From Christensenella sp. (GTDB lineage Bacteria; Bacillota; Clostridia; Christensenellales; CAG-138): a stretch of 64,000 nt of DNA. Shown piece after piece: positions 4,611 to 26,061 of the stretch (the first letter of the stretch is position 1; each line of letters opens with the position of its first letter). The translations under genes were made by a program, and so were the position numbers. A model generated the notes under the pieces. It had not been told where the DNA came from and did not search any database. It saw only the letters and a list, made by a program, of their open reading frames with translations. Location of the stretch: the NCBI GenBank assembly GCA_034927595.1, contig JAYFPQ010000069.1:26412-90411 (forward strand). The letters run 5' to 3'.

Positions 4611-4639
4611 TTGACACAAACATAGCTTTGTGTTAACAT
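4611..4639 (+). promoter_or_regulatory. SigA promoter with overlapping inverted-repeat operator candidate
   Basis: TTGACA(4611)-17 nt-TAACAT(4634); ACACAAA-N6-TTTGTGT at 4614-4633. Confidence 0.65.
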
Positions 4640-4726
4640 CGACGAAAATAGGCGAATCGCCTCATTTTTCGGCAGAAGTGCCAAAAAATGAGTTCCATGT
4701 TTCATAAAACAGGTCTTTGCGGCACG

Positions 4727-4767
4727 TCCTTGATGCCTCCTTTCGGTGGTTTCAAGGATATTTTTTT
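4727..4767 (+). terminator. Terminator-like hairpin inside the leader of the LeuA-like gene
   Basis: TCCTTGA...TCAAGGA stem followed by TATTTTTTT, 34 nt before the ATG. Confidence 0.55.
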
Positions 4768-4800
4768 AAACGCCGCAGAGAACCGGAAGGAGAACACGCC

Positions 4801-6222
4801 ATGGGAAACATACTCATTTCCGACGTAACCCTGCGTCAGGAACGCAAACGGACCGAAGCCGCGCTGAGCTTCCGTGAAAAACTGGAGATCGCGCGCGCTC
4901 TGGACCGACTGCGACTTAGCGGCGTTGAACTACCTTCCATTCAAAACGAAAAAGCGGATACGCTCCTCATCAAGTCCGTTGCCTCCGCGGTGAAGGACAG
5001 CCGCGTTGTCCTCGCCGCCGCGCTTTCGAGCGAGGGCGTCGAGCAGGCGTATGCCGCCATCAAGGAAGCGAACAAACCCTGCCTTCAGATTGCGGTGCCG
5101 ACCTCGACCGCGCAGATGGAATACATCTGCCATAAAAAGCCGGATCAGATTCTGTCGCTCATCGGCGAGCTCGTCAAGCAGGCGAAGTCCCTCTGCAAAG
5201 AGGTGGAGTTTGTCGCCGAGGACGCGACCCGCAGCGACGTGGAGTTTCTCTATCGCGCCATCGACACGGCAATTTCGGCGGGCGCGAGCATCGTGACGCT
5301 GGTGGACGGCTCGGAGGGGATGCTCCCCGCGCGCTTCGGCCAGTTCATTCGGGACGCGTATGCTCATGTACCGGCGCTGAGCAAGGTGTTGCTCGGCGTG
5401 CAGTGCGCGGACGGGCTGAGCCTTGCCGCGGCCGCGGCGCTGAGCGCCGTCGAAGCGGGCGCGGGACTGGTCAAGACCAGCACCGGCGGGGACGGCGTCT
5501 TGCCGCTCGAAACCATCGCGGGGATTCTGCGCGCGCGCGGGGTTGAACTCAACCTGAGCTCGAACATCGCGATGACCGAGCTGAGCCGCGCGGCGGGACA
5601 GGTGCGCTGGATGGTCAGCGCCAAGCGCGGAGCCGCTTCCGACTTTGAGGCGGGCGCGGCGCGCTCTATGGACGAAGCCGTCGTGTTGTCGAGCGAAAGC
5701 TCGCTTTCGGATATCTCCGCCGCCGTGCAGAAGCTCGGCTACGACCTCTCCGAAGAGGACAACGCAAAGGTATACGCCGCGTTTTTACGCATTGCGGATA
5801 AGAAAAACGTTGGCGAAAAGGAACTGGACGCAATCGTCGCGAGCGCGGCGCTGCAGGTTCCGCCGACCTATACGTTGGAAAGCTACGTCATCAACAGCGG
5901 AAACGTCATCACCGCGACCGCGCAGGTCAAGCTGCTCAAGCAGGGCAAGACGCTCTCCGGTTTTGCGGTTGGCGACGGCCCGATTGACGCGGCGTTTCTC
6001 GCCATTGAGCAGATCATTGGCCACCATTATGAGCTGGACGATTTCCAGATTCAGGCGGTTACGGAAGGGCGCGAGGCAATGGGCAGTGCGCTGGTGCGCC
6101 TCCGCGAGGACGGCAAGCTCTACTCCGGCAAGGGTATATCGACCGATATCATCGGCGCGAGCATCCACGCCTACCTCAACGCGCTCAACAAGATTGTCTA
6201 CGAGGAGGGCGCCCGTGCATGA
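4801..6222 (+). CDS. Degenerate 2-isopropylmalate synthase homologue with intact C-terminal leucine-binding regulatory domain
   Basis: LeuA-like fold (DVTLR, EFVAEDATR) but DGEQ->QERK and HxH->QCA; C-terminal GDGPIDA...STDIIGAS regulatory domain conserved. Confidence 0.8.
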   Translation: MGNILISDVTLRQERKRTEAALSFREKLEIARALDRLRLSGVELPSIQNEKADTLLIKSVASAVKDSRVVLAAALSSEGVEQAYAAIKEANKPCLQIAVPTSTAQMEYICHKKPDQILSLIGELVKQAKSLCKEVEFVAEDATRSDVEFLYRAIDTAISAGASIVTLVDGSEGMLPARFGQFIRDAYAHVPALSKVLLGVQCADGLSLAAAAALSAVEAGAGLVKTSTGGDGVLPLETIAGILRARGVELNLSSNIAMTELSRAAGQVRWMVSAKRGAASDFEAGAARSMDEAVVLSSESSLSDISAAVQKLGYDLSEEDNAKVYAAFLRIADKKNVGEKELDAIVASAALQVPPTYTLESYVINSGNVITATAQVKLLKQGKTLSGFAVGDGPIDAAFLAIEQIIGHHYELDDFQIQAVTEGREAMGSALVRLREDGKLYSGKGISTDIIGASIHAYLNALNKIVYEEGARA

Positions 6223-6291: not shown

Positions 6292-8793
6292 ATGAAACTG
6301 AGCTTTTCCACCCGAGGCTGGGGCGAATGCGGCTGGGAGGATTTCCTCGCCGCGGCAAAGGCGACCGGATACAGCGGCGTTGAGCTGCACGGGGTTGCGC
6401 ACTCCGCCTGGTCGCAGGACGGCGCGCCGTTTTCGCGCGCAAACGCAAGCCGGACGGTTCGGCGGTTGTTTGACGAGGGTCTCTGCATCAGCTGCGTGGA
6501 CTCCGTTTGCGACATTTCGTCCGCCGAGACGGACAAGGACGCGGAGCTGACCGAGACCATTCAACTGGCGCACGATTTTTCGATTCCCTATGTGCGACTT
6601 CGTGCGCTGGACGGCAGCGAAGCGGGCATTCAGGCGGCCTACGAGCGCATTTCGCGCGCGCTGCCGTTTGCCGAGGAGCGCGGCGTCATTCTGCTCGTGG
6701 AGACCGTAGCCGCCTTTGCGGACACGGCGAAGCTACAGAGCTTTTTAACCCGGTTTGCGAGCGACTCTCTCGCGGCGCTCTGGGATTTTCACCATCCCTA
6801 TTTTGACCACAGCGAATCGCCCGAAATGAGCATTAAGAACCTCGGCGCGTATGTCAAGCACGTTCACGTCAAGGACGCGGCGGACGGAGACTTCTGCCTG
6901 CCCGGCGAGGGCACGCTGCCGATGGCGGAGCTCATGTCTGCGCTGAGCTCGATCAACTACGACGGTTTCCTCTCGCTCGAGTGGGACCCCAAGTGGATGC
7001 CGGAGATGGACGATCTGGAGAGCGTGCTTGCGCACTTTTCCAACTATATGCAGCGCTTTGGCACCACCGCGCGGCAGAAACCGAAACGCTACCAGAACAA
7101 CGCCAAGACCGGCACGTTCGTCTGGCGGAAGGACATTCTGATCGATGCGACGTTTTCGCAGGTGCTCGACCGCATGGCGGAGGAGTATCCGGATCAGTAT
7201 GCGTTCAAGTATACGACGCTGGACTATACGCGGACCTATTCGGAATTCCGCGAGGACGTAGATCGCTGCTGCCGCGCGCTCGTGAGCATGGGCGTCGGCC
7301 CCGGCAGCCACGTCGCGGTCTGGATGACGAACCTGCCGCAGTGGTACATCGCCTTCTGGGCGGCACCCAAGATCGGCGCGGTGCTCGTCACCGTCAACAC
7401 AGCGTATAAGATTCACGAGGCGGAATATCTGCTCAAGCAGAGTGACACGCATACGCTGATTCTGGAGCAGGGGTATCGGGATTCGGACTATTCCGGCATT
7501 ATTGCCGAACTCTGCCCCGAACTGAAGACCACGCGCCCCGGCGAACACCTGCACGCAAGACGACTGCCGTTTTTACGAAACGTCGTCTCCGTCGGATACA
7601 AGCAGGAGGGCTGCCTGAACTGGGAAGAGATGATGGCGCGCTACAGCCGCACGCCCATCGAAGAGGTCAAGCGCCTTGCCGCTGCGGTCAACCCGCACGA
7701 CGTTTGCAACATGCAGTACACGAGCGGCACGACGGGTTTCCCCAAGGGCGTTATGTTGACGCACTACAACATCGTGAACAACGGCAAGTGCATCGGCGAC
7801 CGCATGGATCTCTCCACCGCGGATCGCATGATGATTCAGGTGCCGATGTTCCATTGCTTCGGCATGGTGCTGGCGATGACCGCCTGCGTGACGCACGGGT
7901 CGACCATGCTGCCGCTGCCGTACTTTTCGCCGAAACCCGCGCTGGCCTGCATCGATCAGGAGCACATTACCGCGTTCCATGGCGTACCGACGATGTTCAT
8001 CGCCATGCTGGAGCATCCGGACTTCCCGAAGACGGATTTCTCGTGCATGCGTACGGGCATTATGGCGGGCAGCCCCTGCCCGATCAAGGTCATGCAGGAC
8101 GTGCTCGAACAGATGCACATGGATCAGATCACGATCGTATTCGGTCAAACCGAAGCGTCGCCGGGCTGCACCATGAGCTCGACGGACGACCCCATCGAGG
8201 TGCGCGTTGGCACCGTCGGCCGCGCCCTGCCGGAGATCGAGTGCCGCATCGTCAGCCCGGAGACGGGCGAGGTGCTGCCGGTCGGCGAGATTGGCGAGTT
8301 TGTGGCGCGCGGTTACAACATCATGAAGGGCTACTACAAGATGCCCGGCGCGACGCGCAGCGCGATTGACGCCGAAGGCTGGCTGCACACGGGCGACCTC
8401 GCCTGCGAAACGCCGGAGGGGAACTACCGCATCACGGGCCGGCTCAAGGACATGATCATTCGCGGCGGCGAGAACATCTACCCCAAGGAGATTGAGGAGT
8501 TCCTCTACACGCACCCCAAGGTGAAGGATGTTCAGGTCATCGGCGTGCCGAGCGAGCAATATGGCGAGGAGATCATGGCCTGCGTCATCCTCAAAGAGGG
8601 CGAGTCCGCCACCGAACAGGAGATTCAGGACTACGTTCGCGCGAGCATGGCCAAGCACAAGGTGCCGAAGTATGTGGCGGTGGTGGACTCCTTCCCGATG
8701 AACGCGGCGGGCAAGATCATGAAGTACAAAATGCGCGAGGACGCGATCCAGAAACTCGGTCTGCAAAAGGCCGCGAGTGTGGTCACCGCATAA
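6292..8793 (+). CDS. Fusion: xylose-isomerase-like TIM barrel + AMP-dependent acyl-CoA synthetase
   Basis: N-term LVET/WDFHH/HVHVKD/SLEW metal motifs; C-term YTSGTTGFPKG, FGQTE, LHTGDL, IIRGGENIYP. Confidence 0.9.
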   Translation: MKLSFSTRGWGECGWEDFLAAAKATGYSGVELHGVAHSAWSQDGAPFSRANASRTVRRLFDEGLCISCVDSVCDISSAETDKDAELTETIQLAHDFSIPYVRLRALDGSEAGIQAAYERISRALPFAEERGVILLVETVAAFADTAKLQSFLTRFASDSLAALWDFHHPYFDHSESPEMSIKNLGAYVKHVHVKDAADGDFCLPGEGTLPMAELMSALSSINYDGFLSLEWDPKWMPEMDDLESVLAHFSNYMQRFGTTARQKPKRYQNNAKTGTFVWRKDILIDATFSQVLDRMAEEYPDQYAFKYTTLDYTRTYSEFREDVDRCCRALVSMGVGPGSHVAVWMTNLPQWYIAFWAAPKIGAVLVTVNTAYKIHEAEYLLKQSDTHTLILEQGYRDSDYSGIIAELCPELKTTRPGEHLHARRLPFLRNVVSVGYKQEGCLNWEEMMARYSRTPIEEVKRLAAAVNPHDVCNMQYTSGTTGFPKGVMLTHYNIVNNGKCIGDRMDLSTADRMMIQVPMFHCFGMVLAMTACVTHGSTMLPLPYFSPKPALACIDQEHITAFHGVPTMFIAMLEHPDFPKTDFSCMRTGIMAGSPCPIKVMQDVLEQMHMDQITIVFGQTEASPGCTMSSTDDPIEVRVGTVGRALPEIECRIVSPETGEVLPVGEIGEFVARGYNIMKGYYKMPGATRSAIDAEGWLHTGDLACETPEGNYRITGRLKDMIIRGGENIYPKEIEEFLYTHPKVKDVQVIGVPSEQYGEEIMACVILKEGESATEQEIQDYVRASMAKHKVPKYVAVVDSFPMNAAGKIMKYKMREDAIQKLGLQKAASVVTA

Positions 8794-8867: not shown

Positions 8868-8892
8868 ACCAATAATTTCATACAGAACAAAA

Positions 8893-9159
8893 GGCTGTGA
8901 CGAAGACGGACGAACGCGCCGCACAAAGAGAGCCGGGGAGGGTGAAATCCCGGCGGCAGGCTACTTCACAATCCCATCCCTTCCGAGCCGAAAACTTGAA
9001 ACGGAGTTTCCGAAATAGGGTTTTCCGTATTTGCCGCGTAAAGGCAAAAGGCTTGTTGGAGCCTGACGAGTGGCGTTTTCACAAACGCAAGTTGAGTGGT
9101 ACCGCGGGACAAATCAAAATGATTGCCCGTCTCAAGAGAAATCTTGGGACGGGTTTTTT
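8893..9159 (+). promoter_or_regulatory. T-box riboswitch, predicted Ile specifier (AUC)
   Basis: GA motif GCTGTGA, AGAGAG/GGTGAAA stem I top, GTTGAGTGGTACCGCG T-box at 9091, terminator 9126-9159; AUC at 8976-8978. Confidence 0.85.
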
Positions 9160-9280: not shown

Positions 9281-11551
9281 ATGGAAACAGTCGAACTCAA
9301 CAGCCAATTGCTTGAAATCGCCTACCGCATTCGCGAGATGCGCGAAATTTCCGGGTTCACGCGGGACGAGATGGCAAAACGCACGGACGTCACCTTGCAG
9401 GAATACACCGACTACGAGGCGGGCAAGATGGACTTTCCGTTTACGTTTATCCATAAGTGCGCGGTTGCGTTCGGCATTGGCATTACCGACCTGCTCGAGG
9501 GCGACAGCGCCAAGCTTTCGTCCTACACGGTGACCCGCAAAGGTCAAGGGCAGATGGCGGCAAAAGAGGACGGAATCGAGATCAGCTCGCTGGCCCCGAT
9601 GTTCCGCAACAAGGTCGCCGAGCCATACTGGGTGCGCTATGCATACTCCGAGTCCCAGCAAAACCGCCCGATCCACCTGACGACGCACAACGGGCAGGAG
9701 TTTGACCTCGTGCTCCACGGTTCGCTCAAGGTGCAGGTCGGCGAGCACACCGAGATCCTGCGCGAGGGCGACAGCATCTACTACAACAGCGCAACGCCGC
9801 ACGGCATGATTGCCGTCGAGGGCAGCGAGTGCCTGTTTCTCGCGGTCGTGCTGCCGGGCGAGGGCGCGGCGAACACCGCCGAGCTGCACACGAGCATCGT
9901 GGAAGCGCGCAGAGCCGAGGATTACGTCTGCAACCGTTTTGTCAAAACGCAGGAAGACGAGCACGGCGCGCTCCAGCACGTGGACTTCGTGGACACCGAC
10001 AAATTCAACTTTGCGTTCGACATTGTGGACGCCATCGCGAAGAAAGCGCCAAACAAGCTCGCCATGCTGCACGTGGACATGGACGGCGTGGAGCGGAAGT
10101 TCTCGTTTGAGGACATGAGCAAGGCCAGCAACCGCACCGCGAACTACTTCCGTTCGCTCGGCATCAAGAAGGGCGACAAGGTCATGCTCGTGCTCAAGCG
10201 CCGCTACCAGTTCTGGTTTGCGATGCTGGCGTTGCATAAGATTGGCGCGGTCGCGATTCCCGCGACATATCAGCTCGTTGCGCACGACTTTACCTATCGC
10301 TTCCAGGCGGCGGGCGTCAGTGCGCTGGTCTGCACGGCGGACGGCGAAGCGGCGGCGCAGGCGGAGCTGGGGCAGGAGGGCTGCCCGGAGCTGACGACGA
10401 AGATTCTCGTCGGCGGAACGCGCGAGGGCTGGCACGACTTCGACAGTGAATATCAGCGCTTCAGCAGCCGTTTTGAGCGTCCGGACGACGCGATTGCGGG
10501 CGAGGACACGATGCTGATGTTCTTTACGAGTGGCACGACGGGTTATCCAAAGATCGCGTCGCATAGCTGCACCTACGCGCTGGGACACTTCGTCACCGCG
10601 AAATACTGGCATCAGGTGCACTCCGACGGGCTGCATTTAACCATTTCGGACACCGGCTGGGGCAAGGCGCTCTGGGGCAAGATCTACGGGCAGTGGCTCT
10701 GTGAAGCGGCGATCGCCACGTTTGAATTCGAGCGGTTCGACGCGAAGTACCTTATTCCGCTGTTTGCCAAGCACAAGGTGACGACGCTCTGCGCGCCGCC
10801 GACGATCTACCGCATGATGATTAAGGAAGACCTGAGCAAGTTTGACTTTTCGACCATTGTCCACGCGACGACGGCGGGCGAGGCGCTCAACCCCGAGGTG
10901 TTCTATCAGTTTGAACAGGCGACGGGGCTACGCATCATGGAAGGATTCGGACAGACGGAAACGACGCTGCTCGTGGCCTGCCTGACCGGAATGAACCCGA
11001 AACCCGGCTCGATGGGGCGTCCGGTGCCAACCTACGACGTCGACCTGCTCACGCCGGAGGGAAAGCCAGCCGAGCTCGGCGAACCCGGCGAAATCGTGAT
11101 CCACGTGGACAAAGGCCATCCCTGCGGACTGTTCCAGGGGTACTATCGGGACGAGGAACAGACCCGCGAGGCGGTCTGTGACGGAATCTACCACACGGGC
11201 GATCTCGCCTGGCGGGACGAGGACGGCTACTATTGGTACGTTGGCCGCCGGGACGACGTCATCAAGAGCTCCGGCTACCGCATCGGGCCGTTTGAGATTG
11301 AGAATGTCATCATGGAACTGCCATATGTGCTCGAGTGCGGCGTGTCTGCGGCGCCCGACGAGCTGCGTGGCCAGGTGATCAAGGCGAGCATCGTGCTCAC
11401 CGCCGGCACCGAGGGCACCGAGGAGCTCAAGAAAGAGATTCAGGAGTACGTAAAAACGCATACCGCGCCGTATAAATACCTGCGCAGTGTCGTCGTCCGC
11501 GACGAGCTGCCAAAGACGATCAGCGGCAAAATCATGCGCCGCCTGCTCTAA
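9281..11551 (+). CDS. XRE-HTH + cupin + medium-chain acyl-CoA synthetase fusion (paralogue 1)
   Basis: IAYRIREMREISG HTH, HNGQEFDLV cupin, FTSGTTGYPK, GFGQTET, YHTGDL, IKSSGYRIGPFEIE. Confidence 0.9.
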   Translation: METVELNSQLLEIAYRIREMREISGFTRDEMAKRTDVTLQEYTDYEAGKMDFPFTFIHKCAVAFGIGITDLLEGDSAKLSSYTVTRKGQGQMAAKEDGIEISSLAPMFRNKVAEPYWVRYAYSESQQNRPIHLTTHNGQEFDLVLHGSLKVQVGEHTEILREGDSIYYNSATPHGMIAVEGSECLFLAVVLPGEGAANTAELHTSIVEARRAEDYVCNRFVKTQEDEHGALQHVDFVDTDKFNFAFDIVDAIAKKAPNKLAMLHVDMDGVERKFSFEDMSKASNRTANYFRSLGIKKGDKVMLVLKRRYQFWFAMLALHKIGAVAIPATYQLVAHDFTYRFQAAGVSALVCTADGEAAAQAELGQEGCPELTTKILVGGTREGWHDFDSEYQRFSSRFERPDDAIAGEDTMLMFFTSGTTGYPKIASHSCTYALGHFVTAKYWHQVHSDGLHLTISDTGWGKALWGKIYGQWLCEAAIATFEFERFDAKYLIPLFAKHKVTTLCAPPTIYRMMIKEDLSKFDFSTIVHATTAGEALNPEVFYQFEQATGLRIMEGFGQTETTLLVACLTGMNPKPGSMGRPVPTYDVDLLTPEGKPAELGEPGEIVIHVDKGHPCGLFQGYYRDEEQTREAVCDGIYHTGDLAWRDEDGYYWYVGRRDDVIKSSGYRIGPFEIENVIMELPYVLECGVSAAPDELRGQVIKASIVLTAGTEGTEELKKEIQEYVKTHTAPYKYLRSVVVRDELPKTISGKIMRRLL

Positions 11552-11688: not shown

Positions 11689-11753
11689 GTACGAAATTAA
11701 ACGCCCGTTGCGTAACTTACGCGGCGGCAACGTTCCACACAAGGTCTAAAAAA

Positions 11754-12058
11754 GGCTGAGACGGAGAGGATCGCGTCCCGATTGCTTTTGCAGAGACCCG
11801 GCGGCTGGTGAAAGCCGGGATGGCATGGACGATGATTTGTAGCTCCCGAGCCGGAAGGAAGAACACCGAGCATACGGTTCGGCAAGTAGAACCTTCCCGT
11901 GCATGCGGCGTTACGGCATAGGGCTTATTGGAGCCTGAAGAGGGGTATCGGCGGCAACGTCGGTGCAATTTGAGTGGTACCGCGGGTAAAAGCTACGAGC
12001 TGCACTCGTCTCAAAGATGATCGGACTATTACGGGATCATCTTGGGGACGATTTTTTT
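11754..12058 (+). promoter_or_regulatory. T-box riboswitch, predicted Val specifier (GUA)
   Basis: GGCTGAGA GA motif, CAGAGA/GGTGAAA, TTTGAGTGGTACCGCG T-box at ~11969, terminator 12006-12058; GUA at 11839-11841. Confidence 0.85.
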
Positions 12059-12149
12059 GTACCTTTCGGTGATGTTCCAGAGCGTCCGAGCGCAACTGAG
12101 CAATCATGCCGGGGTGGTTTTCGCCGCCGGACGAAAGGGAGCAGGCAAT

Positions 12150-14441
12150 ATGAAGGGCAGCAACAGCGAACTCGATTTCCAGCTACAGGAGATGGCGGCT
12201 CGCATCCGCGAGCTAAGGCGCATCTCAAACCTGAGCACCGCCGAGATGGCAGAGCGCACCGGCGTCTCCGAGGCGGAATACACCTCTTGCGAAAGCGGAG
12301 GGCACGATCTCAGCTTCGCGTTCATCTACCGCTGCGCAATGGCATTTGGCGTGAACGTCACGGACATCATCGAGGGCACGAGCCCGACGCTGCGTGGCTA
12401 CGCGATTACCCGCGCGGGCGAGGGTGCGCGCATTGAGCAGGCGCACGGCATGGTCTACTATAACCTCGCCGCGCCGTTTCAGAACCGCATTTCCGAGCCG
12501 CTCTATGTCGAGGTTGGCTACAACCCCGAGGCGGAGCAGAAGGACATTGAACTCACCACGCACGAGGGTCAAGAGTGCGACCTCGTGATCAGCGGCACGC
12601 TCAAGCTCCAGATCGGTTCGCATACGGAGATTCTGCACAAGGGCGACTGCGCGTACTTCGATAGCTCGATTCCCCACGGCATGATCGCCGTCGGCGGCGA
12701 GGACTGCCGGTTTTACGCGATTGTCCTGAACCCCTCCGCCTACAAGGACGCGCACAGTACCGAGGCCATCCAAAATCCGGCCTGGGAACGGCCGGACGAG
12801 TCGGCGCAGCCGCGCATCTTCAACAAGTTTATCCATCCAACCATCGACGCGGACGGGAACCCCACCGCGTTGACTTTCGAGAATACGGACAAGTTCAACT
12901 TCGCGTTTGACATTGTGGACGGCCTCGCGGAGAAATATCCGGACAAGCTCGCGATGCTACATATTTCGAAGGACAAGACCGAGCGGCGCTTCACGTTTGG
13001 CGACTTCAAGCGCGCGAGCGCGCAGTGCGCAAACTACTTCGCCTCCCTCGGCATCCAGCGCGGGGACCGCGTGCTGCTCGTGCTCAAGCGGCATTACCAG
13101 TTCTGGTTTGCGCTCTTGGGGCTGCACAAGCTCGGCGCCATCGGCATTCCCGCGACGTATCTGCTGCAGGAGCACGACTACGCCTACCGCTTCGAGAAGG
13201 CGGGCATCAGCGCGATCATCTGCACGGCGGACGAGGACGCCGCGGAAACGGCCGACCGCGCAGCGGCGGGGTTTTCCGGCAAACTCACGAAGATTCTCGT
13301 CGGCGGCAAGCGCGACGGCTGGCACGATTTTGACAGCGAGTATTCGCGCTTCTCCGGCCGTTTTCCGCGCGAAGCGGACGCGCCCTGCGGCGACGATTTG
13401 ATGCTCATGTTCTTCACGAGCGGCACGACGGGGCAGCCAAAGCTCGCCGCGCATACCTATAAATACCCGCTGGGCCACCACATCACCGCCGACTACTGGC
13501 AGTGCGTAAATCCAAACGGCCTGCATCTAACGATTTCGGATACCGGCTGGGCAAAGGCAATGTGGGGCAAGCTCTACGGGCAGTGGCTCAGCGAGGCGGC
13601 GGTGTTTGTTTACGACTTTGACCGGTTTGACGCGGCGGATATTCTGCCGATGTTTGCGAAATACAACATCACGACCTTCTGCGCGCCGCCGACGATGTAC
13701 CGCATGCTGATTAAGGAGGATCTCTCCAAGTACGATCTGAGCTCCATCAAGCACGCAACCATTGCGGGCGAGGCGCTCAACCCGGAGGTCTTCCGCCAAA
13801 TGGAGAAGTCCACCGGATTGCAGCTCATGGAGGGATTCGGCCAGTCCGAAACCACGCTGGTGATCGGCAACCTCCGCGGCGGCACCCACAAGGTTGGCTC
13901 AATGGGCAAGCCCGTTGCGCTCTACGACGTGGATCTCGTCGACCCGGATGGAAATCCCGTGGAAACGGGAACGAACGGCGAAATCGTCATTCGCATCGAA
14001 AACGGCGATCCCTGCGGGTTGTTTAAGGAGTACTACCGGGACGACGAGGCGAACCGCGAGGCCAAGCGCGACGGACTGTACCATACCGGCGACCTCGCCT
14101 GGAAGGACGAGGACGGCTACTATTGGTACGTGGGCCGCGCGGACGATTTGATCAAATCCTCCGGCTACCGCATCGGGCCGTTCGAAATTGAGAGCGTCAT
14201 CATGGAACTGCCATACGTGCTCGAATGCGGCATCTCCGCCGAGCCGGACGATATCCGCGGGCAGATCATCAAGGCGAGCATCGTGCTCACCGCGGGCACC
14301 GAAGGTACGGAAGCGCTCAAGTCCGAGATTCAGGAGTACGTCAAGAGCCACACCGCGCCGTATAAATATCCGCGCATCGTGGTGTTCCGCGAGAGCCTGC
14401 CAAAGACGACGAGCGGAAAGATCATCCGAAGGCTGCTATAG
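12150..14441 (+). CDS. XRE-HTH + cupin + medium-chain acyl-CoA synthetase fusion (paralogue 2)
   Basis: Colinear with 9281-11551 (HEGQECDLV, FTSGTTGQPK, GFGQSET, YPRIVVF); ATG 12150 after AAAGGGAG. Confidence 0.9.
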   Translation: MKGSNSELDFQLQEMAARIRELRRISNLSTAEMAERTGVSEAEYTSCESGGHDLSFAFIYRCAMAFGVNVTDIIEGTSPTLRGYAITRAGEGARIEQAHGMVYYNLAAPFQNRISEPLYVEVGYNPEAEQKDIELTTHEGQECDLVISGTLKLQIGSHTEILHKGDCAYFDSSIPHGMIAVGGEDCRFYAIVLNPSAYKDAHSTEAIQNPAWERPDESAQPRIFNKFIHPTIDADGNPTALTFENTDKFNFAFDIVDGLAEKYPDKLAMLHISKDKTERRFTFGDFKRASAQCANYFASLGIQRGDRVLLVLKRHYQFWFALLGLHKLGAIGIPATYLLQEHDYAYRFEKAGISAIICTADEDAAETADRAAAGFSGKLTKILVGGKRDGWHDFDSEYSRFSGRFPREADAPCGDDLMLMFFTSGTTGQPKLAAHTYKYPLGHHITADYWQCVNPNGLHLTISDTGWAKAMWGKLYGQWLSEAAVFVYDFDRFDAADILPMFAKYNITTFCAPPTMYRMLIKEDLSKYDLSSIKHATIAGEALNPEVFRQMEKSTGLQLMEGFGQSETTLVIGNLRGGTHKVGSMGKPVALYDVDLVDPDGNPVETGTNGEIVIRIENGDPCGLFKEYYRDDEANREAKRDGLYHTGDLAWKDEDGYYWYVGRADDLIKSSGYRIGPFEIESVIMELPYVLECGISAEPDDIRGQIIKASIVLTAGTEGTEALKSEIQEYVKSHTAPYKYPRIVVFRESLPKTTSGKIIRRLL

Positions 14442-19951: not shown

Positions 19952-19970
19952 GAACGCAATTGAATTTCTA

Positions 19971-20246
19971 ACGCGATGACGGAAACCAGTACCCGTTCAA
20001 GAAGCTTTTTTCAGAGAGCCGCCAATTGGTGCGAAGCGGCAGAAGCGGGAGCGGCGAATTCCTTCCCGAGCGGCTTGCTGAAGCGAAGGTGGTAGGCAAA
20101 GACGGGCGCGCCCGATACAGCGCCGGGGGTATGACAGCGTATCCCAACGAGGCCTTTTCGCGCAAGCGAGCGGCAAATAGAGGTGGTACCACGGGAATCA
20201 GCCCGTCCTCTGCGGAAACAACATCCGCGGAGGGCGGCTTTTTTAT
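19971..20246 (+). promoter_or_regulatory. T-box riboswitch, predicted Phe specifier (UUC)
   Basis: CGCGATGA GA motif, CAGTA, CAGAGAG/GGTGCGAA, GAA-UUC at 20056-20061, AAATAGAGGTGGTACCACG T-box, terminator ~20201-20246. Confidence 0.9.
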
Positions 20247-23505: not shown

Positions 23506-25965
23506 TCACTCCTTAACAAATTCTCGAATCTTGCTAAATATATAACCAAGGTTCTTGTAGGAATCAACAGAAACAAGCGATTTATCTGCGATACAGACTT
23601 CAATAAATTTTTTAATAAAGTTTTCGCGCGAATTAACAATTTCTCGTAAGTATTCATCTTTATTATGAGGAGATTGCAGAGCAAGGAAAGTCTTATACAC
23701 TGCTGTATTGTTAAGATTAATATCTGAGTAATTCTGACGAAAACACATATAACACGCAATAATAGCTTGTGTAAACCTAACATGAGCTAATGAGATTAGA
23801 ATTTTATCATTACGATAATCATGATATCTCTTTTCAAATACTTGCTCTGCAACGTTTGTATCTCTGAATGCTTTTTGCAAGTAAAGGTTTTTATCACTGG
23901 AGTCACTTTCAAAAAGAGCGGAACGTATATAGCACTTCGCTCGTTGATGCATATATTGAGGATCAGATGACAACAAGTCATTCAAATCTTCATATAGCTC
24001 TCTAATTAGTATCAGTCCACCTCGGCCGTGCCTGTAGAAAATATCGTTTATATTATCGAATAGTATATAGTCTTTGTAGTCAGAATCCACTTTCTTGTTT
24101 AGATTAAGCTTGCCTTCAAGCGCAAAAATCCGAGTAAATATATAACGATAAGCGCTAATGATCTTTGTACGATTGGCAGGGGCATCTGAGAATCTGCCGA
24201 GTTGATTATATAACCAGTAATCAGCGTTAAGCACCCATTTTTCTGGCGAGTTATCTGCTGCGTTAATTTCAAAAGACCAAGAAATCTCGTTTTCGATAAG
24301 TGGGGCCGTTCTCTTAGTTTGTTTGTAGAGTTCTTCGAGTAAACCGAAGTCAATTGCTTGCTTCGAGTAAATCTTTTTCTTTATAGCCAGTATGATTAAT
24401 GTGGCTATAGCTTGGTCAGTGGAGAAATCGGGTTTAATATTCTGATACTTAGCTGTTTCAGACAGTTTATAACTAATTTGTAGTAAGTTGTCGATTATAC
24501 TTGATCCACTGAATGCAAAAATGCCTGCCCCTATCGCTGCAAGAAGCGGATTGATACTATCTAGTTCATTCTTGCTCAATTTGTTTGATAACATAAACTG
24601 AGGGATATCGCCAGTTTGAAGAATCCCTTTATACTCTAGCAAACTCATTAACGACCTAACGTCTCGATTGCTTTTATGACAGAAGAGAACAAATGAAGTA
24701 TTATTCTCTTTAAATTTATCACGTGATCTTAATATAGTTTCGATTTGATCATTTCTAAACGACCTGTCATCAGCCAATATTACAGAGTTTTTCCGTTCTA
24801 TTAGTACTTTGAAACCTTCTGCGTTTAACCGGTTCTTCGACTCGAAAACGTACACATCTTTAGACCGAATTCTGCGAGCGAGGTCAATAAGCAGATAAGT
24901 CTTGCCGCTACAACTACTTCCGACTATTAATTGAACTGGATTTGTCGGGATGTTTTCTAGTATTTGCTTCGATGGTTCGCGAGAAATGAAGAAGTAAGGT
25001 ATTGTTAAGGAACGATTTTTTTGTACAAGGCTTTTACCATGTAGTAGATATGATTTATTTTCTTCAAACGTACTATTGAGGCTTTCGACACTCTTTGTTA
25101 TAAACTCATGTAATTCGTCTTCATTAATACATTTTGATTCCTGCCAAGCCTCGTATAACTCGCGGTATATATCGGAGTAAGAATCAAAGACTAGAGCATG
25201 TGTAATACCATAGCGAGAATACTGTATAGATTCTAGCTTGGTTGGTTCATTAACGCAACAAATATAACGTGCAGATATACTTTTTGATTCCTTATTTAAG
25301 TTAAAAGCAGAGAGAAGATCTATTTCATCCTGTAAACCACAACCAATGATAATCAAATTTATGAAGATAGAGTCGTGGTTTAATTTCGAAAGCAGGGGTA
25401 GGTTAGAGTGTAAGCTGAAGACATATTGCTCTTGAGAAAATATCTGACTTTGGGAGTCAGAGAAAGTGATCATCTCATTAACATCACCGTGCAATTTTAC
25501 GACACATAAGTCTTCGTTAAAAACTTCGGGCTCAAATCTTCTGTTTGCGTATATAACATGGTTATATTTACTGTTGTTTTCAATAGCATCGTCGATGTTC
25601 AGGGTGTAAATGTACTGCCAATCTATAGATAAAAACGCCTCTTTGTCATCATCACATATTTTTACTGATGAGAAATTATTCCTTAAATAATTCTTAACAG
25701 AGGATTTGGGGATAATATTTTGATAGTAAGATGCAACATCTGAAAATGATCTATTTTTTAGATAGTCCTGCTCCTCGGCGGTTAGCTCCTCGGCGCGAAA
25801 AATTTCTTTCAGCATATACTCTTTATACTCTGTTCCACTTGGCACACAGCCTGTTTTACTCCGGCAACCTTTTGAAAAGCCAGAGCCAATAATGGGAATA
25901 AGTCTATTCTGTTTGAAATTATTAACTACCTCAGTCCGTACATCACAGAATTTTGTTATTATCAT
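23506..25965 (-). CDS. SIR2-like NADase + P-loop (STAND-like) NTPase + helical C-terminus; candidate anti-phage protein
   Basis: IGSGFS, TLNID, KLHG, IIGCGLQD SIR2 motifs; GSSCSGKT Walker A, VILADD Walker B; markedly AT-rich (one 60-nt line counted at 35% GC). Confidence 0.75.
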   Translation of the reverse strand: MIITKFCDVRTEVVNNFKQNRLIPIIGSGFSKGCRSKTGCVPSGTEYKEYMLKEIFRAEELTAEEQDYLKNRSFSDVASYYQNIIPKSSVKNYLRNNFSSVKICDDDKEAFLSIDWQYIYTLNIDDAIENNSKYNHVIYANRRFEPEVFNEDLCVVKLHGDVNEMITFSDSQSQIFSQEQYVFSLHSNLPLLSKLNHDSIFINLIIIGCGLQDEIDLLSAFNLNKESKSISARYICCVNEPTKLESIQYSRYGITHALVFDSYSDIYRELYEAWQESKCINEDELHEFITKSVESLNSTFEENKSYLLHGKSLVQKNRSLTIPYFFISREPSKQILENIPTNPVQLIVGSSCSGKTYLLIDLARRIRSKDVYVFESKNRLNAEGFKVLIERKNSVILADDRSFRNDQIETILRSRDKFKENNTSFVLFCHKSNRDVRSLMSLLEYKGILQTGDIPQFMLSNKLSKNELDSINPLLAAIGAGIFAFSGSSIIDNLLQISYKLSETAKYQNIKPDFSTDQAIATLIILAIKKKIYSKQAIDFGLLEELYKQTKRTAPLIENEISWSFEINAADNSPEKWVLNADYWLYNQLGRFSDAPANRTKIISAYRYIFTRIFALEGKLNLNKKVDSDYKDYILFDNINDIFYRHGRGGLILIRELYEDLNDLLSSDPQYMHQRAKCYIRSALFESDSSDKNLYLQKAFRDTNVAEQVFEKRYHDYRNDKILISLAHVRFTQAIIACYMCFRQNYSDINLNNTAVYKTFLALQSPHNKDEYLREIVNSRENFIKKFIEVCIADKSLVSVDSYKNLGYIFSKIREFVKE

Positions 25966-26061
25966 ACACTATCTCCAAAAACAATGATTAAGTATAATGT
26001 ACAACAGTAACACGATAAACGCTATATATAATTAGAAATTAGTTGCCTTACATCATTTTGC

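Follow-up and report, generated by a model that had tools for sequence, protein, structure and literature searches.

A xylose-isomerase-like barrel fused to an acyl-CoA ligase under leucine T-box control: a candidate isovalerate-CoA ligase of Clostridia and of gut bacteria from other phyla

Background

Why would an acyl-coenzyme A (CoA) ligase carry, in its own reading frame, a barrel of the fold known from sugar isomerases and epimerases? The question is raised by one gene of Christensenella sp. (Bacillota; Clostridia; assembly GCA_034927595.1), which lies in a 64,000-nucleotide (nt) stretch of contig JAYFPQ010000069.1 (positions 26,412 to 90,411, forward strand; analysed as a whole and called the window hereafter) and joins a xylose-isomerase-like TIM barrel to an ANL-family acyl-CoA ligase. 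An original prediction, made from the letters of the window, recognized the fusion and proposed either channelled isomerisation, epimerisation, or dehydration of an acid or its CoA ester, with 2-methylbutyryl-CoA as one candidate, or docking of the barrel to a neighbouring pseudo-LeuA. Here, leucine-specific T-box leaders in front of the gene family and the repeated loss of the barrel's metal site under purifying selection lead us to a reading that we hold with about even confidence, namely a leucine-branch isovalerate-CoA ligase that carries the barrel as an accessory regulatory or adaptor module.

Isovalerate, isobutyrate, and 2-methylbutyrate are required by, or beneficial to, anaerobes of the rumen and gut, which build leucine, valine, and isoleucine from them. 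To our knowledge, the enzymes that activate these branched acids have not been pinned to genes. For the leucine branch, the fusion is a specific candidate with a very wide distribution: about half of the sampled Clostridia carry it, as do gut Lentisphaerota and Planctomycetota, and its leucine T-box is a built-in label that makes the assignment directly testable. The barrel, in turn, amounts to a natural experiment in how an enzyme fold may become a pseudoenzyme, as it exists in intact, fused, and split forms and has had its metal site destroyed on three separate occasions, this destruction apparently always following the arrival in the operon of a second pseudoenzyme, the LeuA-like protein that we call dead LeuA below.

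One reading frame for a barrel, a linker, and a ligase

The gene is a single uninterrupted open reading frame of 833 codons by both the list of open reading frames and the translation, and a GGGGGA ribosome-binding site stands 9 nt 5' of its ATG. Its parts are as follows (aa, amino acids).

6292–8793 (+): complete gene of the fusion (833 aa and stop codon), comprising TIM barrel, linker, and ANL acyl-CoA ligase (list of open reading frames, three Pfam domains)
6292–7056 (+): xylose-isomerase-like TIM barrel, aa 1–255 (PF01261, AlphaFold2, Foldseek)
6700–6702 (+): codon of E137, position of the first metal ligand and catalytic Glu of the epimerase family (invariant in 80/80 fused proteins)
6784–6786 (+): codon of D165 (WDFHH), metal-ligand position (alignment)
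6865–6867 (+): codon of H192 (HVHVKD), metal-ligand position (alignment)
6979–6981 (+): codon of E230 (SLEW), position of a metal ligand and the second catalytic Glu (alignment)
7057–7146 (+): linker, aa 256–285, with conserved NNAxTGxxVWxKDxLID motif (alignments, AlphaFold2)
7147–8790 (+): ANL-family acyl-CoA ligase of the PRK12583/FACL type, aa 286–833 (PF00501, PF13193, NF009233)

The N-terminal part scored 95.8 bits against PF01261 (AP_endonuc_2; aa 19–240, E 4e-27), which places it in that family at a cut-off of 31.1, and AlphaFold2 predicted aa 1–285 confidently as a (beta/alpha)8 barrel (predicted local distance difference test, pLDDT, 88; predicted template-modelling score, pTM, 0.84). 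Foldseek matched it with a probability of 1.00 to many members of the xylose-isomerase-like superfamily, among them Art22 isomerase, ketose 3-epimerases, UlaE, and AsbF (template-modelling (TM) scores of 0.70–0.75 at 13–24% identity), while the matches in the ESM Atlas were solely generic 'sugar phosphate isomerase/epimerase' clusters (0.88). The four ligands that the original prediction had picked out are present, with E137 (LVET), D165, H192, and E230 aligning with the metal-ligand region of D-tagatose 3-epimerase (phmmer against 2ou4), whose own ligands we take to be E152, D185, H211, and E246. At the N terminus, M1, K2, F5, S6, and T7 are invariant or nearly so among relatives.

The C-terminal half is a full ANL ligase by its membership in PF00501 (AMP-binding, aa 293–682; 303.9 bits, cut-off 29.9) and PF13193 (aa 733–808; 70.8 bits, cut-off 24.5) and by its complete set of core motifs (YTSGTTGFPKG at 476–486, GQTE at 618–621, GWLHTGD at 696–702, GRLKD at 716–720, and K808), which are invariant in 26 relatives with the hinge reading GRxKD. 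Between the halves, N269, T273, G274, W278, and L283 of the linker are invariant and K280 and I284 nearly so in 26-sequence alignments, and the linker structure is left undefined by both AlphaFold2 models, in which its pLDDT falls below 50. The full-length model also predicts the ligase core at aa 470–565 poorly.

The same three-domain frame was found in more than 120 protein clusters (830–843 aa, 66–96% identity), whose database names are only 'AMP-binding protein' or 'fatty-acyl-CoA synthase'. Scanning one genome per species, we found it in 233 species of three phyla, including complete chromosomes (Petroclostridium sp. X23, Formimonas warabiya, and Dehalobacter), the cultured Pseudobacteroides cellulosolvens and Desulforamulus aeronauticus, and many gut and rumen metagenome-assembled genomes (MAGs) of Bacillota, Lentisphaerota, and Planctomycetota. 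In the window's class (Clostridia), 204 of 399 sampled genomes hold the barrel, mostly in open frames of 820–900 aa. Identity across relatives is 72–78% for the ligase (three phyla) and 36–48% for the barrel.

Could the fusion nonetheless be an artefact of assembly or gene calling, or a decaying remnant without function? The window's genome is fragmented (165 contigs), which would leave room for such an error, and we found no evidence in support of one. The frame runs uninterrupted through the junction in the window and is the same in the complete chromosomes, hundreds of independent assemblies carry it, and both halves are under purifying selection. Because the frame recurs in the clusters, the species genomes, and most of the positive Clostridia, the fusion is not an assembly artefact, and we regard the artefact or remnant explanation as refuted, with a vanishingly small chance of being right. 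A separate observation concerns one frame of 968 aa (G102:C1:446975-449569, minus strand), about 120 aa above the usual length, where the excess may be a further N-terminal extension or merely an upstream in-frame stretch.

Leucine T-boxes precede the ligase family

T-boxes respond to uncharged tRNA, and the genes under their control typically serve amino-acid supply. In Petroclostridium and Pseudobacteroides, an Rfam T-box lies directly 5' of the solo fusion gene, and in a Ruminococcus MAG one precedes an operon of dead LeuA and fusion; the cmscan alignments place the specifier CUC in all three leaders. With an nhmmer profile built from these three, further T-boxes were detected, so that one stands directly 5' of the solo fusion or the two-gene operon at 38 of 80 loci, 5' of 12 of 16 unfused ligase orthologues (11 of them readable), and at 9 of the 10 loci from another gut clade (L116–L125). 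The codon taken as the specifier is followed by one base, then by the 3' strand of the basal stem, and stands ahead of a GAGC-type anchor; this reading, based on stem pairing, was checked by eye and against the cmscan alignments. All 58 readable specifiers of fusions, two-gene operons, and unfused orthologues are leucine codons (CUC in 55 and CUG in 3), while the identical rule, applied as a control to the leaders of adjacent helix-turn-helix (HTH)-cupin ligases in relatives and in the window, reads AUC or GUA.

By these leaders, the fusion is predicted to be switched on by leucine shortage. Because every T-box found with the ligase family reads leucine and not isoleucine, 2-methylbutyryl-CoA is disfavoured as the substrate. 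The window's own operon starts from the following element.

4611–4800 (+): promoter (TTGACA-17-TAACAT) and leader of ~160 nt with a hairpin and T-run terminator (promoter scan, sequence)

The promoter, of sigma-70 type with an inverted repeat in its spacer, occupies 4611–4639, and relatives have a Leu T-box at the place equivalent to the whole element. Elsewhere in the window, T-boxes at 8888–9137, 11749–12016, and 19967–20213, two of them below the Rfam gathering cut-off, stand 5' of the cluster's other ligases, with the specifiers AUC (Ile; register ambiguous), GUA (Val), and UUC (Phe).

The metal site is lost repeatedly beside dead LeuA

The partner at issue is encoded immediately upstream of the fusion gene.

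4801–6222 (+): LeuA-like gene (HMGL-like and LeuA_dimer), upstream partner in the same operon (Pfam, NCBIfam; far below the LeuA cut-offs)

In the window, a gap of 70 nt without a terminator separates the two genes, and a LeuA-like gene lies directly 5' of the fusion at ~49 of the 80 loci and at all 10 loci L116–L125. The ligase gene of the window's clade would thereby have recruited a catalytically dead LeuA that retains its leucine-binding domain. At L116–L125 (e.g., L116:2374-4549) the tblastn match to dead LeuA stops ~8 nt before the fusion start, versus 70 nt in the window, a spacing that suggests translational coupling of the two genes in those loci.

Across the 80 fused proteins, E137 is kept even in clades without other ligands. 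Position 165 is D in 68 and H in 12 Ruminococcus-type proteins, position 192 is H in 78 and R in L029 and L039, and position 230 is E in 67, I in 12, and D in 1 (L016), with D165H and E230I combined in the 12 Ruminococcus-type proteins. The large gut clade L116–L125 goes further, as all 10 loci fetched carry D165N, H192R, and E230A and retain E137 as their sole ligand; by ligase identity, this clade accounts for ~23 of 103 ligase-positive genomes (our own count from search rows). Ligand loss was seen in none of the 31 solo fusions and none of the 15 stand-alone barrels.

For the ligase half, a maximum-likelihood tree (IQ-TREE, quick search, distant outgroup; the window's sequence is entered twice and L075 is a solo locus, which leaves the topology unaffected) resolved three groups: one clade of unfused ligases, one of solo fusions, and one linked to dead LeuA (Shimodaira–Hasegawa-like approximate likelihood-ratio test 95). 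Within the last, three ligand-loss lineages stand apart, each beside intact sisters (L044; L016 and L017), and by this tree the metal site was lost at least three independent times (one to three of the four ligands), only inside the dead-LeuA clade. Despite the lost ligands, the barrel is under purifying selection, with ratios of nonsynonymous to synonymous substitution rates (dN/dS; rough values) of 0.08 for the barrel and 0.035 for the ligase in the Ruminococcus-type clade, and of 0.11 and 0.036 in the large gut clade, where amino-acid identity is 76% vs 92%. For the ligase, dN/dS lies at 0.03–0.04 in three clades and at 0.12 among the five members of the window's own clade, and the barrel evolves 2–3 times faster than the ligase. 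No second barrel copy was seen in the ligand-loss genomes in a search at E ≤ 1e-20.

The four-ligand site therefore appears dispensable for the barrel's conserved task once dead LeuA is present, and it is always kept where dead LeuA is not. Because ligands were replaced in at least three lineages and the barrel was still retained under selection, channelled isomerisation or epimerisation is not supported as its conserved role. The alternative of a docking domain for pseudo-LeuA fits better, as all ligand losses fall inside the single dead-LeuA clade, but it is not the whole story, as barrel and ligase are paired in many genomes without dead LeuA at the locus.

The same tree bears on the spread of the operon. 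Because loci of Lentisphaerota and Planctomycetota (Lentisphaerota/Thermoguttaceae loci L018–L041, L046–L049, L056, and L082; ligase 74–76% identical) nest within the Bacillota dead-LeuA clade, adjoining the window's clade (support 97–100), transfer of the operon of dead LeuA and fusion between phyla among gut bacteria is suggested.

Barrel and ligase are partners outside the fusion

The ligase half was searched alone in 200 genomes (G001–G200). Its unfused orthologues (50–68% identity, open frames of 555–630 aa) are accompanied by a stand-alone barrel of 270–300 aa in 21 of 22 genomes, by our own reading of the search rows, and such a barrel occurs in ~4 of 96 ligase-free genomes, two further matches being fusions cut at contig ends. 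Three arrangements are found: fused, ligase-then-barrel in one Leu T-box operon, and unlinked. The stand-alone barrel gene lies directly 3' of the ligase gene in G022, G009, and G151, with both genes behind one Leu T-box in G022 and G151, and this order is the reverse of that in the fusion. The four ligands are complete in each of the 15 stand-alone orthologues, which like the solo-fused form carry the motifs GIEIRG, WDxHHPYR, and EWxKRW, and the xylose-isomerase-like barrel would accordingly be an old, nearly obligatory partner of the ligase family. Unlinked barrel genes sit in mixed contexts, including a sugar kinase with ABC permeases, an amidohydrolase, an aminotransferase IV, and another ANL gene.

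Some of these neighbourhoods hold further genes. L093:5528-10243 (+) contains an amidohydrolase, a class IV aminotransferase, a stand-alone barrel orthologue, and a different AMP-binding ligase (26% identical to the fusion ligase), making it a second, independent barrel–ligase neighbourhood. Downstream of the unfused ligase, an Amidohydro_2 (PF04909) gene follows the stand-alone barrel on its 3' side at L100:8884-9705 (+) and at the equivalent position of L106, and a gene resembling acyl-acyl-carrier-protein (ACP) thioesterases lies 3' of the unfused ligase at L107:4394-5200 (-) and L114:244-1062 (-) and beside the ligase in L112. Both kinds of gene are possible further members of leucine T-box operons.

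A proposed route from isovalerate to leucine

Downstream of the fusion, the window encodes two MbcS-like ligases with XRE-HTH-cupin heads, a P-loop gene, three 2-oxoacid:ferredoxin oxidoreductase subunits, a CN-hydrolase, and a class IV aminotransferase. Ruminococcus-type loci place the oxidoreductase and aminotransferase immediately 5' of the LeuA-like gene and likewise cluster the gene with MbcS-like ligases. No conserved neighbour was found at the 31 solo fusion loci, which belong to environmental Bacillota and have the gene behind its own T-box; a close oxidoreductase alpha subunit is encoded elsewhere in five solo-form genomes (48–62% identity). As a compositional aside, the 2 kb at 24001–26000 have 36% G+C, and the rest of the window 51–63%.

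Because the leucine specifiers come together with this oxidoreductase and aminotransferase context, we assign the ligase to the leucine branch of a putative fatty-acid-to-amino-acid salvage system, in which it probably feeds isovalerate into leucine synthesis. The C-terminal ANL module would convert isovalerate (3-methylbutanoate), ATP, and CoA to isovaleryl-CoA, the neighbouring 2-oxoacid:ferredoxin oxidoreductase would carboxylate isovaleryl-CoA reductively to 2-oxoisocaproate, and the class IV aminotransferase would turn 2-oxoisocaproate into leucine. For the barrel, a regulatory or adaptor role seems likelier than an enzymatic one. Its metal site may be a ligand-binding site that became dispensable once dead LeuA was present; in the dead-LeuA clade, the LeuA remnant would have taken over sensing, and the barrel would have stayed as a structural link, a non-catalytic module that ties the sensor to the ligase or keeps the complex assembled.

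Weighing the alternatives

Several points weigh against this assignment. The case for isovalerate as the substrate draws on leucine T-box control and gene context, and in the window's own operon leader no T-box or other Rfam match was found at E ≤ 0.01; because the leader has no Rfam family match, it may be an unrecognised attenuator. Full-length AlphaFold2 modelling with a 26-row alignment gave no confident interface between barrel and ligase (pTM 0.43), the dN/dS values are rough because synonymous sites are near saturation, and the related genomes counted here are not independent samples. Upstream of barrel genes unlinked to the ligase, no T-box or riboswitch was found where these were looked for, and some of these genes sit in sugar-type operons. 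Canonical leuA, leuCD-type, and leuB genes lie on contig C148 of the window's genome; the isovalerate route is therefore an addition and not essential there, which led us to reject, for this genome, the idea that it makes up for a missing leucine pathway. The metal site is a further such point, as both catalytic-type Glu residues and the site as a whole are kept in the window and in all solo and all stand-alone forms, as they would be in a working enzyme.

This last point leads to the reading that the window's barrel catalyses a metal-dependent reaction (as an isomerase, epimerase, dehydratase, or proofreading hydrolase) on the substrate or product of the ligase, the ligand-loss clades being secondary pseudoenzymes, which we consider possible but rather doubtful. 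It would explain why E137, D165, H192, and E230 persist in the window, in 31/31 solo fusions, and in 15/15 stand-alone orthologues, and it accords with stand-alone barrels that are sometimes far from the ligase, a pattern commoner for pathway enzymes than for docking domains; the Amidohydro_2 gene after the barrel (L100, L106) and the thioesterase-like gene after the ligase (L107, L114) also hint at further acyl chemistry. However, no isomerisation is required on the way from isovalerate to leucine and isovaleryl-CoA lacks a stereocentre, the sugar-binding Arg of ketose 3-epimerases has no conserved counterpart in our reading of the alignment, and the faster-evolving barrel lost ligands three times while it was kept under selection with no replacement copy. 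A related and likewise tentative idea, to which we give well under even weight, would make the barrel a novel type of acyl-CoA ligase partner, either an enzyme with chemistry novel to its superfamily or a metal-site sensor that gates the ligase. Such chemistry might, for example, remove wrongly activated straight-chain acyl products that would otherwise lead to norvaline or norleucine, or convert an unrecognised leucine precursor, and the pseudo-LeuA leucine sensor would then have taken over the task in several gut lineages, leaving a pseudoenzyme barrel.

A different use of the ligase product is conceivable but quite improbable as its main one, namely that isovaleryl-CoA primes iso-branched membrane fatty acids when leucine, from which this primer is normally derived, is scarce. 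MbcS of Staphylococcus aureus, which is reported to scavenge branched short acids for lipid primers, is a precedent (PMC10026030, PMC11167679). An acyl-ACP-thioesterase-like gene near the unfused ligase in L107, L114, and L112 would also fit. Against it stand the usual place of T-boxes in front of amino-acid supply genes, the presence in the window and in Ruminococcus-type loci of the oxidoreductase and aminotransferase needed to reach the amino acid, and a partner derived from LeuA with a leucine-regulatory domain. The two uses are not mutually exclusive, and supply of isovalerate carbon to leucine, with the barrel as an accessory module, is the reading that we retain.

Comparison with known systems

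The literature searched yielded no characterised TIM-barrel–ligase fusion, no named bacterial isovalerate-CoA ligase, and no description of Art22. The ligase half is closest to PRK12583/NF009233 ('fatty acid CoA ligase family protein'), with which it aligns end to end (702–703 bits, model positions 14–557 of 558) and shares all ANL core motifs; it stays below the curated cut-off of 832 and is not a member by NCBI's rule. We know of no member of the PRK12583 group with an N-terminal TIM barrel or a Leu T-box. Bacillus subtilis YngI, from a leucine-degradation-type operon, may belong to this group.

The barrel has the fold of the ketose 3-epimerases (D-tagatose/D-psicose; PDB 2ou4, 2hk0, 3vni) and of Art22 (PDB 8z1i) at TM scores of 0.70–0.74 and 13–24% identity, and the window's copy has the same Glu/Asp/His/Glu positions as the ketose 3-epimerases, among them both Glu residues that serve the epimerases as bases. 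This metal site, intact in the window, is not conserved across the barrel's own family. We take the epimerase sugar-binding residues to be a Glu six after the first ligand, a His three after the Asp, and an Arg six after the His. By alignment alone, H168 is present at one of these positions (H in 59/80, Y in 19/80), D144 lies near the Glu position, and a conserved Arg after H192 was not seen in what is a variable region with insertions. Unlike ketose 3-epimerases, the barrel is joined to an acyl-CoA ligase or occurs as its partner, is associated with leucine control and not with sugars, and has a metal site that is dispensable in several clades.

MbcS (Staphylococcus aureus, NF047394; PMC10026030) has the same job as proposed here, the activation of an environmental branched C4–C5 acid, but belongs to a different ANL subfamily and lacks a TIM barrel. 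The two neighbouring HTH-cupin ligases match NF047394 best (420–428 bits), and this model is outside the top 25 matches of the fusion protein. Those neighbours, XRE-HTH-cupin-ANL fusions at 9281–11551 and 12042–14441, likewise couple a ligase to an extra, possibly ligand-sensing module, though their heads are unrelated in fold to the barrel and a sensing role is putative for all of them. Set against these systems, the protein combines a fold and a ligase of known kinds into an ANL ligase with an unprecedented and evolutionarily labile TIM-barrel partner.

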